64,000 bases of DNA, taken from assembly GCA_951406725.2 (NCBI GenBank), contig OX597823.1, positions 67,394,001 to 67,458,000 of the forward strand. The letters are read 5' to 3'. The notes beneath the pieces were generated by a model, which saw nothing but the letters and a program-made list of their open reading frames with translations, did not search any database and was not told the DNA's origin. The position numbers were made by a program, and so were the translations under genes. Shown here one piece after another: positions 16,877 to 59,321 of this stretch (its first letter is position 1; the number at the start of each line of letters is the position of its first letter). Source of the stretch: Octopus vulgaris. Its lineage: Eukaryota.

Positions 16877-17295
16877 TCTTTTTTCTTTACTGCCCACAAG
16901 GGGCTACGCACAGAGAGGACAAACAAGAACAGACAAACGGATTAAGTCGATTACATCGACCCCAGTGCGTAACTGGTACCTATTTAATTGACCCCGAAAG
17001 GAAGAAAGGCAAAGTCGGCCTCGGCGGAATTTGAACTCACAACGTAGCGGCAGACGAAATACCTATTTCTTTACTTCCCACAAGGGGCTAAACACAGAGA
17101 GGACAAACAAGGACAGACAAAGGGATGAAGTCGATTATATCGACCTCAGTGCGTAACTAGTACTTATTTAAACGACCCCGAAAGGATGAAAGGCAAAGTC
17201 GATCTCGGCGAATTTGAACTCAGAACGTAACGGCAGACGAAATACTGCTAATCATTTCGCCCGGCGTGCTAACGATTCTGCTAGCTTGCCGCCTT
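16877..17295 (-). mobile_element. Family A SINE tandem dimer
   Basis: Two head-to-tail copies within one degenerate TSD, cg(t/c)cc(t/c)tc(t/c)agtgttt. Confidence 0.85.
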
Positions 17296-23168: not shown

Positions 23169-24290
23169 AAGTAAACAGAAATATTGAAGGATTTAATAGA
23201 ATTAGAGACAGAGTCTTCAGATCCAGAAATTAAATTTGCAAAGGTTGCGTTGTGTTAAATTCTAACAAATTTAATCAAACGTGATCTTATTTCAGCTAGG
23301 TCACTTAAAATTAAAAGAATATTAATAAAACAGAATATTGCTGTCACGAGGATTATATGCATTTACTACTTCATATATATCAGGCTCAATTCTAGACATA
23401 ATTAATCGCTGGTATTTTAGTCCTCTTTGAAGGTGACTTAATATCAGTAATGGTTCAAGTCTAGTTAATGTACAGTAATCTATTATTCTTTAATGTTAAT
23501 GAAATATATGGCGACACGAAATCATATGGACTTACAAAATATATAAACAAATTTTTCCAAGTACTGTCACACCTTTCCTTGACACCTTTCTTTTCTTGAA
23601 CATCTTTTTGACAAGGTTCATCACCTTTGAACTTTTATGTAATACTCCAACTGAAGTTTACTGTCTCCTTCCACCAAAAAATTTTTTTCAATAACGCGTC
23701 ATCCGCATTAAAGCCTTCTTTGTGAAACACTGCGCTAGAAACCTGTCTCGGGAGTGTCCTACTCCAAAAAGTAAACCACTCGTCTCATAACTCACTATTA
23801 TCCAGAGTTATTCTCTTCAACACATGAAATTACTTTTGCTAATACAGACCATGTTCCGCTTTAGCAACAGGAAATGTCACACGCAATACCAAATATACAA
23901 AATACTAGCTGAATTTCGAAAATTTTATTTTAACCAGTGTAATATGAATTCGGTCATAAACAGATTCCAAGCCAATGCTATAGAGAATTCTTTTGAAATC
24001 TTTTTCTTTTTTCTATTTTCATTTTATTTTACTTTTTTTTTTACCTAACTGAATTTTATTCAAATTCAGTTTTTGCAAACTCAATTTTTAAAAATCTAGT
24101 TTTGTTTCAATTCCCATTTGAAATTATATCAATAACTTCCTGAAACATTCACATGTGCTGATTCCTCCTCTTCAAAGCATTCAGCTTTCATGTTTTCTTC
24201 GTAATAAACAAAAAATTATTTTTAAAACATTAAATTGAAAATAAAAGAAATCATATGTGTATGAATATAATTTTTGTTCTCATGTTTCAG

Positions 24291-24820
24291 AGCCGGTGAA
24301 GTGAAGCCGATAGGAGACAGAGCAAAAGAAGATCTCATCCGGTTAGAATATACAGGGATGGTTCACTGGGATGTTTCTCTAACTTTCTCAACACATTGTG
24401 ATATAGATATCACATATTACCCATTCGACACCCAACGCTGTACACTTGAACTGGGAGAATGGACGTACACACGTAAAGAAATTAATTTCACTACACACTC
24501 CAAAGGGATCGTGTTAGATTCCTACAAAGACAACGGGGAGTGGAATATTATCGGAACTTTCGCTCAACCGAAACAATACGGGGCGGAGTATATGCAGCTT
24601 CACTTCGGCCTTGTGATGAAAAGAAAGTCTCTTTACTATATACTGAACGTTATAGTACCACTTGTTCTCATCTCAATTTTGTGTGTAATAAGCTTTCTCA
24701 TCCCATTGGATGCCGGAGAGAGGGTCTCTTACTCAATCGCGGTCTTGCTATCACTTGCCGTTTTCCTAACTGTAGTCAGTGCAAACATGCCATCTACGTC
24801 AAAATACGTCTCTGTTTTAG
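24291..24820 (+). CDS. Same gene, 530-nt exon: Cys-loop, loops B and C, M1 and M2
   Basis: tttcag acceptor and gtaagt donor; C-x13-C loop CDIDITYYPFDTQRC, GEWTY, NGEW, M1 YYILNVIVPLVLISILCVISFLIP, M2 GERVSYSIAVLLSLAVFLTVVSANMP; phases match both neighbours. Confidence 0.97.
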
Positions 24821-25164
24821 GTAAGTAAATCCTTAAATATCTATTCTTTTATTCTTTTACCTATTTCAGTCAATGAACAATGTGGGGACACCGTCTTGAA
24901 GTGTTTAGTCAAGTAAATGTCTCCAGTATTTATTTTAAGCGTCATACTTATTCTGACGGATTCTTTGTCCTGGGCAATATATTACAGGGACCTAAACCAA
25001 TCAGTGCTGGTTGTGAACCGGTGGCAGGCATACATTTTCATACGAAGACATGTGCACGCACATACATTATATGTGTTTGTTATGTATGTATGTATGTATG
25101 TATGTATGTATGTATGTATGTATGTATGTATGTATGTATGTATGTATGCATGTATATATCTGTT

Positions 25165-28027: not shown

Positions 28028-28272
28028 CAACATCTGATAGCCTGGTCGGTCACGGTGATCACGGTGATATATATATATATATATATGTTTGCTGATGCGT
28101 GTGCGTATATATATATTCACGGTGATCACGGTGATATATATATATATATATGTTTGCTGATGCGTCTGCGTATATATATATATATATATATATATACGCA
28201 CACGCATCAGCAAACTATATATATATATATATATACCGTGATCACCGTGACCGACCAGGCTATCAGATGTTG
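28028..28272. repeat. Nested foldback at a SINE tail
   Basis: caacatctgatagcctggtcggtcacggtgatcacggt (28028-28065) is the exact reverse complement of 28235-28272; inner arms gtttgctgatgcgtgtgcgtata/tatacgcacacgcatcagcaaac are separated by (TA)n. Confidence 0.9.
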
Positions 28273-30716: not shown

Positions 30717-30871
30717 TAGTTATTCTTATCAAAATTTAAGATTTTAAAGTTGTTGCGAAATGCTTAACATGTTCTCTCTCTTTCTCTCTCTCCCCCTGTC
30801 TTTCTCTCTCCCTCTTTCTCACTGTCTCTCTCTGTTTTTTTTTTTCTCACTTTCATTTCTATCTATTGCAG

Positions 30872-31389
30872 CGGTATACCTGGTTACGGTAATGATTATC
30901 AGTGCACTCACCTGTGTCATGACAATCCTTGTAATCAGAGTGTACCATCGGAACGATCACGAGTGTCCTATACCTTTGTGGTTGCAGAAATTTGTCGGCA
31001 GCTTTGCACCTCTTCTGTCCGGAAGTAGCAGTGGCATCATTGTGAGCCAACACAGTTCCCCTGAGCACGTAGCCGAAACTGGTTGGAGCCGAACTAACAC
31101 CGCTGACGATATACACGAACGACTGGAATGCTGGGGAGAAGAGCCGGGAGCTCGAGACTTTGCGAATCGACGCCGTGGCGAATCTCGTGTGTTCCAGACA
31201 ACGCGTATGAGCATGAGGCGTAAGAAGTCACTTAAACAGGATTGTATCCGCGATGGCGACCAAACTCGCCGTCCGAATTCATGGAAGAATGTGGCGCGTG
31301 CTATTGATAGATTTTGTTTCCGGTTAACACTTTTCATTGTTCTTCTCACTAACCTAATGATGATGATTGTTCTCGGTGCTTTCAGTTGA
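30872..31389 (+). CDS. Same gene, terminal coding exon: M3, MX, intracellular loop, M4 and stop
   Basis: Long CT tract plus ttgcag acceptor; G+CG gives Ala in frame; M3 VYLVTVMIISALTCVMTILVIRVYHR, MX PIPLWLQKFV, pre-M4 WKNVARAIDRFCF, TGA at 31387-31389. AATAAA near 31522 is a candidate poly(A) signal. Confidence 0.95.
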
Positions 31390-36861: not shown

Positions 36862-36928
36862 GGTGGGGTGTATGCGCGCGTGTGTGTAAGTGTATGCATA
36901 TATATATACATATAATATATATAAATTT

Positions 36929-37150
36929 GAGAAAAACCACTATTATGCAATTCAAACAATGGTAGACATAAACCAAATCATAAAGAAAAAATAAAATATA
37001 TTATAAAACATATAACTAGATCACAAAAAGTACAAAAATGAATAAACAATATATAATAAGTGATCTAGTTATATGTTTTATAATATATTTTATTTTTTCT
37101 TTACCATTTGGTTTATGTCTATCATTGTTTGAATTGCAGTGGTTTTTCTC
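36929..37150. repeat. Near-perfect ~95-bp AT-rich inverted repeat with a 35-nt loop
   Basis: 36929-37024 versus 37060-37150, including a long exact stretch aaagaaaaaataaaatatattataaaacatataactagatcac and its complement. Confidence 0.9.
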
Positions 37151-37396
37151 TAATTCATATATATTATATATTTATATTGTGAAATTTGATTTAATACTAA
37201 ATTGAATTTTTCCCTGTAAGTTTGGAGTTATACTCCCTAATATTATTATTATTATTATATATACATATATATATGTATCAGATGTTTCGAATCGTTTGTA
37301 GCTCAACGTTCGTATGGACATGGCAGCATATAAAACAGTGTCGGATCACAGTCAAGAAGATAATATTTAAGTTCAAAGCTGTACTTTAGTCCTTAG

Positions 37397-47928: not shown

Positions 47929-48158
47929 CATTTCTTTATTACCCACAAGGGGCTAAACATAGAAGGGACAAACAAGGACAAACATAGGTATTAAGTCGAT
48001 TACATCGACCCCAGTGCGTAACTGGTACTTAATTTATCGACCCCGAAAGGATGAAAGGCAAAGTCGACCTCGGCGGAATTTGAACTCAGAACGTAACGGC
48101 AGACGAAATACCGCTAAGCATTTCGCCCGACGTGCTAACGTTTCTGCCAGCTCGCCGC
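47929..48158 (-). mobile_element. Family A SINE, young copy
   Basis: 13-bp TSD ttggatatatacc. Confidence 0.9.
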
Positions 48159-48810: not shown

Positions 48811-49015
48811 TCAGAAACGTTAGCACGCCGGGCGAAATGCGTAGCCGTATTTCGTCTGCCGTTACGTTCTGAGTTCAAATTTCGCCGAGGTCGACTTTGC
48901 CTTCGATCCTTTCGGGGTCGATAAATTAAGTACCAGTTACGCACTGGGGTCGATGTAATCGACTTAATCCATTTGACTGTCCCTGTTTGTCCCCTTGTGG
49001 GTAGTAAAGAAATAG
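48811..49015 (+). mobile_element. Family A SINE, slightly 5'-truncated
   Basis: TSD gactt(t/c)atgtacacggtgt. Confidence 0.9.
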
Positions 49016-50269: not shown

Positions 50270-50655
50270 GTTACTCCGTTAAGTGAGTCTCTTTCAATTT
50301 ATGTGGAACCCAAATATCGAGCTTCTTAACGAATCCAAGACATTTAAAGTAATTTTCAATTGTGTGTGATACATTTAACCTCTCTACAATCTCTTGCACA
50401 GTTCTATGACAATCAGATTCAATTATGGTTTTGATTCGATCATCATCAACTTCAGTAGGTCGACCAGAACGATGGCCACCAGTGAGTGAAAAATCTCCAG
50501 AACGGAATTTTTAAAACCCATTTCTGACATGTATGTTCAGCTAAGCAATCAACACCATAAACTTCACGTATCTCTTTGTGAGCCTCAGCAACCTTTTTGC
50601 CTTTATAGAAATAAAAGAGCAAAATATCGCGAAAATGTTCGTTTTGGGACTCCAT
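50270..50655 (-). mobile_element. mariner transposase N-terminal fragment (frameshifted)
   Basis: MESQNEHFRDILLFYFYKGKK..AHKEIREVYG..CQKW, then after a frameshift KFRSGDFSL..RSGRPTEVDDDRIKTIIE..LDIWVPHKL: bipartite HTH plus the WVPHEL-type motif. Confidence 0.9.
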
Positions 50656-50916
50656 GTTAAAATTTACGCTGAACTAACAGCTGTAAACAAAGTTACGCGC
50701 AATTTGCTTCTAAAGTAAGTAAAAAGTAACGGCTATCAAATGACAAAAGCAAAAAATCATAACACAGACAAAAGTCATTCAAAGAAATATGCGCAGGCAT
50801 AGGCATGGCTATGTGATAAGAAATTTGCTTCCCAAGCACATAGTTCTGGGTTCAGCCCCACAACGTGGCACACCTTGGTCAAGTATTTGGTAAGCAGACA
50901 AGAAAAGAAGCCCATC

Positions 50917-55676: not shown

Positions 55677-56048
55677 GGAGCACTCCGTCGGTTGCGACGA
55701 TGAGGGTCCCAGCTGATACGATCAACGGAACAGCTTGCTCGTGGAGTGGCTGAGCACTCCACAGACACGTGTACCCTTAACGTAGTTCTCGAGGAGATTC
55801 AGCGTGACACACAGAATGTGACAAGGCTGGCCCTTTGAAATACAGGTACAAGAGAAACAGGAAGAAAGAGCGAGAGAAAGTTGTGGTGAAAGAGTACAGC
55901 AGGGTTCACCACCACCCCCTGCCGGAGCCTCGTGGAGCTTTAGGTGTTTTCGCTCAATAAACACTCACAATGCCCGGTCTGGGAATCGAAACCGCGATCC
56001 TCCGACCGCGAGTCCGCTGCCCTAACCACTGGGTCATTGCGCCTCCAC
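55677..56048 (-). mobile_element. SINE family B
   Basis: 14-bp TSD taaagcacacaata. Confidence 0.92.
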
Positions 56049-56310
56049 TAAAGCACACAATACTGCGATATTTGCCAAGACAGTAAAACTCTCAAATGAT
56101 TTTTCGGTGCATATAAGCACATCATAGTTATCGACAGCAGCAGATAATCATTGCCGCTTCCGTTTCAGTCATTGGCGTTTTTGTCGAACGAATTGACACC
56201 AGTACTTAATTTTTAAACCAGATATTTATTGTCGGAGACGGAGACAAAACCAACACCGACTGTCAAGCAGTGCTCAGGAACAAACACAAATACATATACG
56301 CACACACACA

Positions 56311-56349
<39 letters not shown>

Positions 56350-56532
56350 TTTTTTTACCGTTTTACTTGCTTCAGTCATTGGACTGTGGACATGCTGGGA
56401 CTTCAGGTTTTGCTTACAGCGCGTAGGTCTCCCAAGCCGTCACCCATCTAACCATATAAGCACTAACAAGGTTCGACACTGCTTAGACTTGGTATTGGGA
56501 CGAAAACCGATGTTTTCAACGATATATGTATG

Positions 56533-56594
<62 letters not shown>

Positions 56595-56668
56595 TGTGTG
56601 TTTGTAAGTATGTATTTATGTATGTATTTATGTATGTATTTATGTATATATATGTGTGTGTGTATATG

Positions 56669-56703
<35 letters not shown>

Positions 56704-56730
56704 ACTATAGGACAATCAGTAAGTTGTCAT

Positions 56731-56784
56731 AATAGGACTCAGAGTTTCAAATGCCGGAGCTACGATGCATTTTCATCGGCTATT
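56731..56784 (-). ncRNA. Type-I hammerhead motif in the left arm of a foldback element
   Basis: Reverse strand reads AATAG-CCGATGA-AAATGC atcgtagctccg GCATTT-GAA-ACTCTGAGT-C-CTATT: all three stems pair, with one core change (U4C). Confidence 0.7.
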
Positions 56785-56966
56785 TTTATAACAGACGCTA
56801 TAAAAAACGGTTGAATAAAGGGGAGGTTACTCTAATAGAGAGGAAAAAATTATAAAAGATAAAAAGTTAAAAATAAAAATTATAAAATATACATGTAACC
56901 ATATTGTCCCAATACATATACCTTCTGCGTTCGTTAAAATCTACATACGTATACACTCACACAAAC

Positions 56967-57000
<34 letters not shown>

Positions 57001-57071
57001 TCATACACACACAAAGCATATACGTGCATTTATGTGCTCATATACACATCTCTACACGCACATACGCATAT

Positions 57072-57116
<45 letters not shown>

Positions 57117-57286
57117 CACATACATGTATAAATATACACCCACACACCTATATATGTACGCAACTTCATCTTTATATACACATAGATGTATGCTTATGTG
57201 TATATGAAGATGAAGTTATGTGCATATATACGTATGTGTGTATATTTATACATGTTTGTGTATAAATATATAAATATATATATACA

Positions 57287-57318
<32 letters not shown>

Positions 57319-57623
57319 CATACACAAACATGTATAAATATATATATATATATATGGATATGCGTGTGTGCATGTAGCGATATATATATGAGCACGTAAA
57401 TGTACGTGTGTTTTGTTTGTGTATGGGCATAAATATATATATATGTTTGCGTGAGTGTGTACGTATGTAGATTTTACGAACGCAGAAGGTTTTATATGTG
57501 TTGTGAGAATATAGTTACAAGTATTTTTATAATTTTTGTTTTTTATTTTTTACCTTTTATAACTTTTCCTATTAGAGTAACTTCCTTTTTATTCAACAGT
57601 TTTATCATAGCGTCTGTTGTCAA

Positions 57624-57684
57624 AATAGCCAACGAAGATGCATCGTAGCTCTTAGCTCCGGAATTTGAAACTCTGAGTCGTATT
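57624..57684 (+). ncRNA. More decayed hammerhead motif in the right arm of the same foldback
   Basis: AATAG-CCAACGA-AGATGC...GAATTT-GAA-ACTCTGAGT-C-GTATT, the inverted homologue of 56731-56784. Confidence 0.5.
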
Positions 57685-57776
57685 ATGACAATTTACTGAT
57701 TGTCCTATACTATACATATATAAATTCCTCTATTTACCTAATATCTTTTATTGTCATTTTATTATTATTATTATTA

Positions 57777-57827
<51 letters not shown>

Positions 57828-57831
<4 letters not shown>

Positions 57832-58057
57832 TTCTTTACTGCCCACAAGGGGCTAAACATAGAGGGGACAAACAAGGACAGACAAAGGAATTAAGTCGAT
57901 TACATCGACTCCAGTGGGAAACTGGTACTTTATTTATCGACCCCGAAAGGATGAAAGGCAAAGTCGACCTCGGCGGAATTTGAACTCACAACGTAACGAC
58001 AGACGAAATACCGCTAAGCATTTCGCCCTGCGCGCTAACGTTTCTGCCAGCTCGCCT

Positions 58058-58058
<1 letters not shown>
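57828..58058 (-). mobile_element. Family A SINE inserted in (TA)n
   Basis: Full-length homology to family A. Confidence 0.9.
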
Positions 58059-58135
<77 letters not shown>

Positions 58136-58237
58136 AGAAATAATTGAGGTCCAGTAGAATTAGCTACTTAAATTGAGACACTAATGCTGTTCAGTAAAGT
58201 CCACACAGCTCGAAATTTGGTGAATAAAAAGCATATT

Positions 58238-58943
58238 AGTAAAAAGGATGTCCAGGTATCAGTGTATTACGGCCGTTTCAAGCGGCTCCATTTAATTGAT
58301 CAATCAAGATATTACATCAATTCTAAAATAAACCGCTCTCCTCGGACGCTGCCATACATTTCTCACATAAAGAATAAAGCATTTGTTTTTCGCGCAACTT
58401 GTATCAGTACTAGCAGCCAAAATAATTACATTGATTTTGCTTGTTATTTCTGTGGCAGAATGAATTTAGTAAATAATGCATCCCTACAGTCCACTATGAT
58501 TTGGAGTAGCATATTTGAATAGTGGGAGTGAAGAATGAGGAAAAGAGAGATAGTTAGATCTACATTTATCATTATTACATTTCTCAGATTATTTGCAGCA
58601 TATTGTCTCCAACTCTTAAGAACTAAGCCCACTGGGAGTTGACAGTTAAGTTCCTGCAAGTGGTGATAAATTAATTAAATGTCAGATACGCCCCCACCCC
58701 TGTCTAGGCTTATCTATATTCTGCCACAGAAATAGAAAGGAAACACAATGTAATTATTTCGGTTGCTAGTATTGATGAAAGTTGCGCTAAAAAATGGTTT
58801 ATTCTTTATTTTGGGAATCTATATGGTTGGTTGGGTGTGAGGAGAGCAGTTTAATTCAAATTGATGCAAAGTTCTAATTGATCGATTAAATGGAGCCGCT
58901 TGAAACGACCGTAATACATTGATACCTGGACATCCTTGTTACT
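58238..58943. mobile_element. Foldback element: ~220-bp inverted arms with a ~255-bp spacer
   Basis: 58238-58461 (aaggatgtccaggtatcagtgtattacggccgtttcaagcggctccatttaa...ttctgtggcagaat) is the imperfect reverse complement of 58718-58943. Confidence 0.85.
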
Positions 58944-59321
58944 TATTTACTATTATTTACTGAAACAATTAAAAGATATATATATATATATATATATTAT
59001 CTTTTAATTGTTTCAGTATGACCATCCCGAAATAAAACAAAATCTGTTTCAACACATGATTTTACATGAAGAATCTAGCAAAACAAATTCATAGTCGTAA
59101 TATATATATATGGGCTTTTTTCAGTTTCCGTCCACCAATTCCATTCATAAGGCTGTGGTAGGCCTGTAGTCATAGTAAAAGACACTTAACCGAGATGCCA
59201 CGCAGTGGGATTGAACCTGAAACAATGTGGTCGGAAAGCAAACTACTTAACCACACAGTTGTGTGTGTGCGTATATGCGTGGATGTATATCTATATGCAT
59301 ATAATGTGTGTATGTATACAA

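Follow-up and report, generated by a model that had tools for sequence, protein, structure and literature searches.

The foldback at positions 56706-57709 of the stretch of Octopus vulgaris DNA analysed here (64 kb, referred to as the window) raises the question of whether it is a mobile unit in its own right, equipped with ribozymes at its tips and carrying a microsatellite, or rather what the insertion of another element has left behind. We consider it probable (about 0.72 for the explanation as a whole) that the locus consists of old, decayed head-to-head copies of the hammerhead-bearing 3' end of an octopus repeat, which were written into a TA microsatellite by a Penelope-like element (PLE).

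The whole of 56706-57709 forms one head-to-head palindrome, or inverted duplication, around a loop of only 8 nt (57186-57193), which is closed by a 24-bp stem (z -8.85). The left arm (56706-57185, minus strand, 480 nt) corresponds to the 3' part of the repeat and stops at a short end without a tail, and the right arm (57194-57709, plus strand, 516 nt) is its inverted copy. The inverted arms are real: their outer parts are 83% identical with gaps (BLAST E 1e-66) and contain 29 substitutions in 261 aligned columns (p=0.111). The TA/TG-rich inner part (56968-57441) is likewise present in both arms, with changed array lengths, and contains 21 substitutions in 193 aligned columns (p=0.109) besides 78 gap columns. 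The microsatellite thus belongs to the duplicated unit and has diverged by 11%, like the outer arms. Because it is duplicated, and because the divergence is uniform at about 11% along the arms, the whole structure was most likely formed in a single step. The original prediction had described a microsatellite core enclosed by the arms; no such core exists, since the microsatellite is itself duplicated and the true loop is the 8-nt stretch at the junction. Capture of a microsatellite between two arms is ruled out by the same observation, the inner part having been duplicated with the same divergence of about 11%. Within the microsatellite of the right arm there is also a small nested inverted duplication (57246-57346), which is missing from the left arm and accounts for about 52 nt of extra length.

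Each arm contains a type I hammerhead fold near its outer end, on the minus strand at the left and on the plus strand at the right, and in this respect both predicted folds were borne out. The left motif (56724-56791, minus strand) has the core CCGAUGA at 56779-56773, GAAA at 56748-56745, and C17, with the predicted cut after C17 at 56736. Its stem II is complete (6/6 bp), its stem III is palindromic (ACUCUGAGU), its stem I has five contiguous pairs (9/12 in the extended stem), and its loop II has a 7-nt deletion relative to the family. The right motif (57617-57691, plus strand), with the core CCAACGA at 57629-57635 (G5A), GAAA at 57667-57670 and H17 at 57679, is more decayed: the 1.1-2.1 pair is broken, and stem II and stem I retain 5/6 and 10/12 pairs, respectively. 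When the window was scanned with a descriptor relaxed to accept C or U at position 4, the left motif was the sole match in the 64 kb, and the same descriptor had no match in 40 block-shuffled windows or in 5000 arm shuffles. Rfam returned no hammerhead among 84 matches to 56000-58400 ranked by E-value, most of which are below-threshold microsatellite look-alikes of miRNAs, and no match at all to the 64-kb window at the gathering score. No second motif in direct repeat was found at the locus, which has one motif per strand. As to the core, the canonical box C3 U4 G5 A6 N7 G8 A9 is present in neither arm, since both have C4 and the right one also has G5A. G12 A13 A14 A15.1, U16.1 and a non-G H17 are found both at the locus and in the family, and three helices surround the core and are preserved by the variation, the two-sided changes in the family being unphased and the distal part of stem I falling close to the limits of the stretches compared. 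Since U4C is a known tolerated variant, it weakens the status of the motif as a canonical member of the type I class, and not the view that it works like one.

The evidence on the family comes from short Logan contigs of public runs that were aligned to each arm; these provide allele shares and some junctions, unphased, and their summed depth is not a copy number. Contigs aligned to the left arm number 257, 222, 302 and 403 in four runs with four organism labels. In run X1 the summed depth is 16,620 near the tip, as against 18.8 and 35.2 for the contigs that exactly match the left and the right arm, respectively, which suggests a high-copy repeat family of hundreds of copies. The depth falls to about 90 at 56916-56924, partly by real 5' truncation and partly by poor alignment across the 7-nt deletion of the left arm. 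Contigs of two other organisms are nearly identical to the arms (over 119, 165 and 121 nt they show 2, 4 and 3 differences, respectively, the second with a gap as well); because the arms differ from each other by 11%, we read these as probable orthologues, in which case the insertion would predate those species splits. Two presumed RNA runs, X20 and X7, yielded 21 contigs and one contig, none of them 99% alike to the right arm, in a comparison without a DNA control, and are not taken as a sign of expression. Pattern scans for the motif gave 0 and 1 matches in metagenomes and 2 in viral sequences, and all three lack the rest of the motif.

The arms are also paired in inverted orientation elsewhere, as the original prediction required of a family. 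Opposite-strand joints were found in 4 rows among 1184 contigs for the left arm and in 2 among 486 for the right arm, one contig each, and these counts are a lower bound, since few contigs are long enough to span a joint. The joints fall at about three positions, 30-165 nt from the 3' end, so that the position of the junction varies among them. One 192-nt contig of run X1 has the head-to-head geometry, with arms near 110 nt; judged from the coordinates, the other joints would also be head to head, with arms of roughly 30-165 nt. These much shorter arms of differing length speak against a foldback family that is copied as a unit. The idea that the element spreads microsatellites is not supported either, since the element sits in microsatellites and few copies reach the inner part.

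The variation within the family is informative with respect to the core. With the right arm as the reference, position 4 is C in 91% (X1) and 94% (X3) of the depth. Among the left-arm loose-end consensus rows listed that reach this position, seven of nine have C, one has U and one has G, and the right-arm rows comprise two with C and one with U. It should be noted that position 4 is covered by only about 15% (X1) to about 35% (X3) of the depth present over the 3' half of the motif, so that a more divergent U4 subfamily may be undercounted. The family-majority core is CCGAYGA, and the canonical U4 (CUGA) form is in the minority. This result goes against the expectation in the original prediction that young copies would have CUGAUGA, and as far as the core is concerned it fulfils the condition that the prediction itself had named as refuting it. 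It also changes how the left copy is to be read: its stems are paired, as had been noted (stem II 6/6), but its supposed core substitution is the majority state of the family, C4, and not decay.

Minority copies with the canonical U4 form are represented by an X3 loose end behind 56759 and by an X20 loose end before 57638. In X3, U4 is linked to a C-to-U change in stem II, and G-to-A at the partner of that site is also common, the two being a compensatory pair if they are in phase. Mere CpG decay as the source of the U4 copies is ruled out, since the X3 loose-end class ties U4 to the second change in stem II.

Over the 58 positions of the motif, the most variable are H17, N7 and 10.1. H17 is A, C or U at 19-53% each, with no G listed, and G12 A13 A14 A15.1 and U16.1 show no variant at or above 3%. 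The letters seen are G and A at 10.1 and U and C at 11.1, compatible, though unphased, with G-U, A-U and G-C pairs, and C and U at 1.1 opposite G; most variants at these three positions and in stem II are compatible with G-U or alternative pairing. In stem III, 7% variation at the centre compares with no more than 3% in the flanks, and according to the variants of the left-arm runs stem I would extend to 12 bp in about half of the depth. Nine of the ten fixed core positions are without a variant. The tenth, G5, reads A in 20-28% of the depth; it is a CpG site, and the reference (right arm) itself carries A, which biases the reading toward A. Variable positions make up 1 of 10 in the core and 20 of 47 elsewhere, a difference that is borderline (Fisher p=0.052). 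Taken together, the contigs indicate that the pattern of variation is that expected of a hammerhead, peaking at N7, H17 and the pair 10.1-11.1.

The two ends of the element are unequal. The right arm, and only the right arm, continues into a 3' tail of at least 26 nt (57710-57735, plus strand), the far end of which is not fixed. A 21-nt motif derived from the loose-end consensus of run X14 occurs exactly at 57710-57730 and nowhere else in the window, and the match extends by eye to 57735 with one difference. The limits first given, 56706 and 57709, hold for the span of the palindrome; the right one does not hold for the element, which continues to at least 57735. The left arm has no tail, and the loose ends before 56706 are (TA)n in the four runs. 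A TA/TG microsatellite flanks the structure on the left (56525-56705) and (TTA)n followed by (AT)n on the right (57757-57831), and both likely represent the target. Contigs that stop at 56706 and pass straight into (TA)n number 21, 14, 17 and 22 in the four runs, and those with further fixed letters before 56708 number 20, 10, 27 and 25. Short-end and tail-continuing contigs therefore stand at 74 to 82, near 1:1, a ratio that covers the two largest classes listed; the 24 contigs of four smaller classes at 56710-56711 and 293 rows beyond those listed do not enter into it. For X1 and X14, part of the 56708 consensus passes into (TA)n, and a longer non-microsatellite tail is seen in X2, in X3 and in the 56710 class of X14.

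These features can be set beside what is known of PLE insertions. PLE insertions have an adjacent inverted, 5'-truncated copy, a tail of 30-40 bp that is often at one end only, and (TA)n targets, a target preference reported for the Neptune, Hydra and Naiad clades (PMC8557442). At the octopus locus we find a 3'-terminal hammerhead whose predicted cut lies about 30 nt inside the short end, an inverted 5'-truncated copy joined head to head, a tail at one end only, and (TA)n on both flanks, with (TA)n also in the loose ends of the family in the DNA runs. The one-sided tail, the flanks and the head-to-head copy support the PLE-type mobilisation that had been suggested for this locus. It has been shown that a PLE protein nicks and extends both strands and that two internal start sites bound the tail; cleavage by the ribozyme is not needed in vitro (PMC11167929).

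We propose that the PLE endonuclease would have nicked both strands of the (TA)n target in one event, and that reverse transcription would have begun about 30 nt downstream of the cut site, at two fixed sites separated by about 30-40 nt, which would yield one short end and one tailed end. After about 500 nt, the far ends of the two cDNAs would have been joined within TA/TG-rich sequence. In that case the foldback would be a by-product of insertion and not the mobile unit, and the much shorter arms at the other opposite-strand junctions make it likely that it is re-made at insertion rather than copied whole. A single primer could also account for much of this, if one cDNA snapped back within the TA/TG-rich sequence and copying then proceeded outward to give the second arm. 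The symmetric centre with its 8-nt loop and the near-equal arm lengths fit such a snap-back as well as they fit two primers, palindromes at inverted junctions have been read as the result of self-priming (PMC3846280), and the two arms share rarer alleles of the family (A at 10.1, C at H17 and the window base at 56792). We nevertheless hold it to be unlikely, if worth serious attention, as it leaves unexplained why about half of the ends lie at one fixed internal point (56706), a point that matches the two start sites measured for PAc (PMC11167929), and as the arms differ greatly in length at one other junction at least (57620-57686).

The two-primer insertion by a PLE also has to be weighed against readings in which the foldback moves by itself or is no PLE product at all. 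If the 1-kb foldback were a mobile non-coding unit, the transcripts of which are cut by the 3' hammerhead and re-inserted together with the microsatellite, one would understand the motif at both tips, the lack of an ORF, the recurrence of inverted pairs and the presence of some depth at 56943-56966 beyond that of the locus's own two arms. This is improbable, however, as the other junctions lie 30-165 nt from the 3' end and not 500, the depth of the inner arms is about 100-fold lower, and the cut site is 30-60 nt inside both ends, which means that the template was not cut there; moreover, the right motif has G5A, and 53-59 of 65 motif bases would be paired with the opposite arm, at a cost of 78-82 kcal/mol to free them. 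A foldback or MITE-type DNA transposon, with terminal inverted repeats that resemble a hammerhead by chance, is very improbable. Although the inverted arms are long and MITE-like repeats are common in the window, the ends are unequal because of the tail, arm lengths vary, the gradient in depth runs to one side only, there is no visible target-site duplication, and the motif arose in none of 5000 shuffles and varies according to the rules of a hammerhead. That the palindrome is a chimeric fold-back read in the assembly, a known sequencing artefact, is hardly credible for arms that differ by 11% with indels and are separately matched by near-identical contigs in independent runs.

A further question is whether the locus can still cut. 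In neither arm does the hammerhead have the lowest energy: calculated with an open stem III, the hammerhead fold has +1.7 kcal/mol against a local minimum of -11.9 in the left motif and -7.3 against -14.4 in the right motif, a cost of 7-14 kcal/mol. The unconstrained folds of the motifs have z only between -1.0 and 0, so folding energy lends the hammerhead no support. Stem III has a positive energy by itself (+2.1) and becomes stable when formed between two molecules (-7.9). A read-through transcript of the foldback has a computed fold of about -550 kcal/mol, in which the opposite arm takes up most of each motif, as mentioned above. The original prediction was that a transcript from either strand would be cut near its 3' end. 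Given a single motif per strand, a stem III that requires a dimer partner, a motif buried by the opposite arm at about 80 kcal/mol and G5A in the right motif, cutting by either copy in a read-through transcript appears unlikely from these models, and the transcript would form a long dsRNA instead. For the family at large, the U4C core and the palindromic stem III point to a ribozyme that would be a slow, dimer-dependent cutter.

Stem I offers alternative pairings. A terminal 7-bp hairpin just inside the short end (57687-57704, plus strand; z -5.8 on a stretch chosen for it), with a left-arm counterpart at 56711-56728 on the minus strand, competes with the distal stem I of the hammerhead. In the stretches 57680-57704 and 57613-57628, the distal 3' strand of stem I can pair upstream, giving the long stem I, or downstream, giving the short-end hairpin. 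Loose ends of the family carry CUAUU further upstream, with which the 5' strand of stem I might pair instead. It is possible that these alternatives act as a folding switch between a cutting and a priming state.

With respect to coding capacity, none of the 136 ORFs of the window (at least 65 aa, low-complexity ones dropped) has an RT or a GIY-YIG domain in Pfam, and the six sense-frame translations of the arms are, by eye, stop-ridden or microsatellite, with no coding remnant. The window thus holds no ORF of an autonomous PLE with both RT and GIY-YIG, and for that reason the enzyme can be read only from the insertion footprint. The claim that the element is non-coding holds for the 480-516 nt present, which may be the truncated end of a longer element. 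The parent RNA is somewhat more probably a non-coding, retrozyme-like passenger of a PLE than the 3' UTR of a coding PLE.

A more far-reaching reading may be put forward as speculation, and as a whole we regard it as rather unlikely. The main job of the hammerhead would be to pair two RNAs, so that it would be a signal for template dimerisation first and a cutter second. A prolific PLE-mobilised RNA family of octopus would have become fixed for the slowed U4C hammerhead, with the self-complementary stem III kept almost free of change. The RNA dimer would be passed to a dimeric PLE enzyme, one RNA priming each strand of the break, and an insertion with two arms and one tail would be the normal outcome.

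The neighbourhood of the foldback contains other repeats and part of a gene. On the plus strand, 24271-24825 and 30748-31386 are exons of a nicotinic acetylcholine receptor-like gene; the former is 99% identical to an alpha-3-like protein of Octopus sinensis, and the latter, which encodes the C-terminal membrane region, lies about 25 kb upstream of the foldback. A second palindrome with a perfect centre (36902-37177, 276 nt, 83%) is AT-rich and lies beside an (AT)n array; it has no hammerhead by the relaxed descriptor and is possibly another PLE-type stub. The foldback at 28028-28272 (79%) encloses (TA)n, one of its arms contains a 65-nt tandem duplication, and its right arm continues into what we take to be a common SINE. 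A MITE-like inverted repeat with 240-nt arms (58227-58461 / 58718-58954, 80%) lies 500 nt to the right of the hammerhead-bearing foldback, and an HTH fragment of a Mariner/Mos1 transposase (Pfam HTH_48) is found at 50455-50673 on the minus strand. One abundant short repeat has copies at 47965-48146 / 48812-48993, 57832-58060 and 16882-17245; two of these are inverted, 670 nt apart and 93% identical, which adds further potential for dsRNA formation.

The locus itself is an ordinary dead stub of the PLE type, and its value is that of a pointer to the family. With C4 as its majority core and U4 as its minority core, the multi-species family provides a natural pair with which to ask whether PLE-type mobilisation needs fast cutting, and the near 1:1 ratio of short and tailed ends is a genomic test of two-primer insertion. 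If transcribed, such foldbacks would also supply long dsRNA directly, in an animal for which an unusually large number of dsRNA-forming loci and heavy A-to-I editing have been reported (PMC5625713). Of the O. vulgaris genome, 6.83% consists of PLEs, which fall into 190 families (PMC13282606).

Compared with known systems, the locus has most in common with insertions of endonuclease-bearing PLEs (PMC8557442, PMC3846280, PMC11167929), with which it shares the head-to-head copies, a hammerhead near each 3' end, the tail at one end, the (TA)n target, the lack of a visible target-site duplication and a palindrome at the junction. It differs from them in having no ORF, near-equal arms, a degenerate microsatellite and a C4 core. 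The original prediction knew of no description of this layout in cephalopods; the layout is already in print. The PLEs of Schistosoma mansoni contain pairs of minimal hammerheads on opposite strands, 100-700 bp apart (PMC4209133), Penelope-13_HM has the motif on both strands by way of an attached inverted copy, and Hydra-1_oBim is a hammerhead-bearing PLE from an octopus (both PMC8557442, the only item in the literature covered that pairs a hammerhead with an octopus or cephalopod). The Schistosoma pairs resemble our locus in the opposite-strand layout, a long stem II, the requirement for a dimer and tolerated core variants; the spacing here is larger (about 850-940 bp), and the variant named in the Schistosoma text is U3-A8 and not C4.

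The hammerheads of Hydra-clade PLEs (Penelope-13_HM, Penelope-16_HM, Hydra-2_aMil and Hydra-1_oBim; PMC8557442) also have a 4-bp palindromic stem III with a one-base centre, and the stem III ACUC-N-GAGU is shared with several Hydra-clade rows of Files S1/S2 of that paper. H17 as A, C or U, the T-rich upstream sequence and the (TA)n targets are further common features. In contrast, the rows of File S2 all have U4 and include no core of the CCGAUGA type, whereas the locus and the family have C4; here, in addition, stem I reaches about 12 bp and loop II contains a further hairpin. The motif of the locus differs in sequence from that of Hydra-1_oBim. As the locus encodes no protein, its match to the Hydra clade is confined to the form of stem III and the target. 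The sequence motifs of the family had no match in the supplements of PMC8557442 and PMC13282606 as available to us, and the family seems to be undescribed in the literature covered.

The locus is likewise comparable to the metazoan non-LTR retrozymes (PMC7229834; bioRxiv 10.64898/2026.07.22.740005) in being non-coding over the part present, in its type I hammerhead, in its proposed mobilisation by PLEs and in its presence in molluscs. Retrozymes, however, are tandem units, each with a hammerhead, and give circular RNAs (same sources; review PMC6765202), whereas no tandem arrangement is found at the locus, which is inverted, has one motif per strand and does not return to its own start within 480-516 nt. 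As to the core, a viroid hammerhead with U4C is much slower in vitro and sufficient in vivo (cited in Perreault et al. 2011, PMC3088659). This was the only relevant item on U4C or CCGAUGA hammerheads in the literature covered; Lunse et al. 2017, on variants of PLE hammerheads, may also describe C4 cores. In the viroid U4C is a rare variant; here, it is the majority state of a genomic repeat family of several species. In summary, the locus works like a PLE insertion, the layout of which is known, and its unusual point is the C4-majority core.
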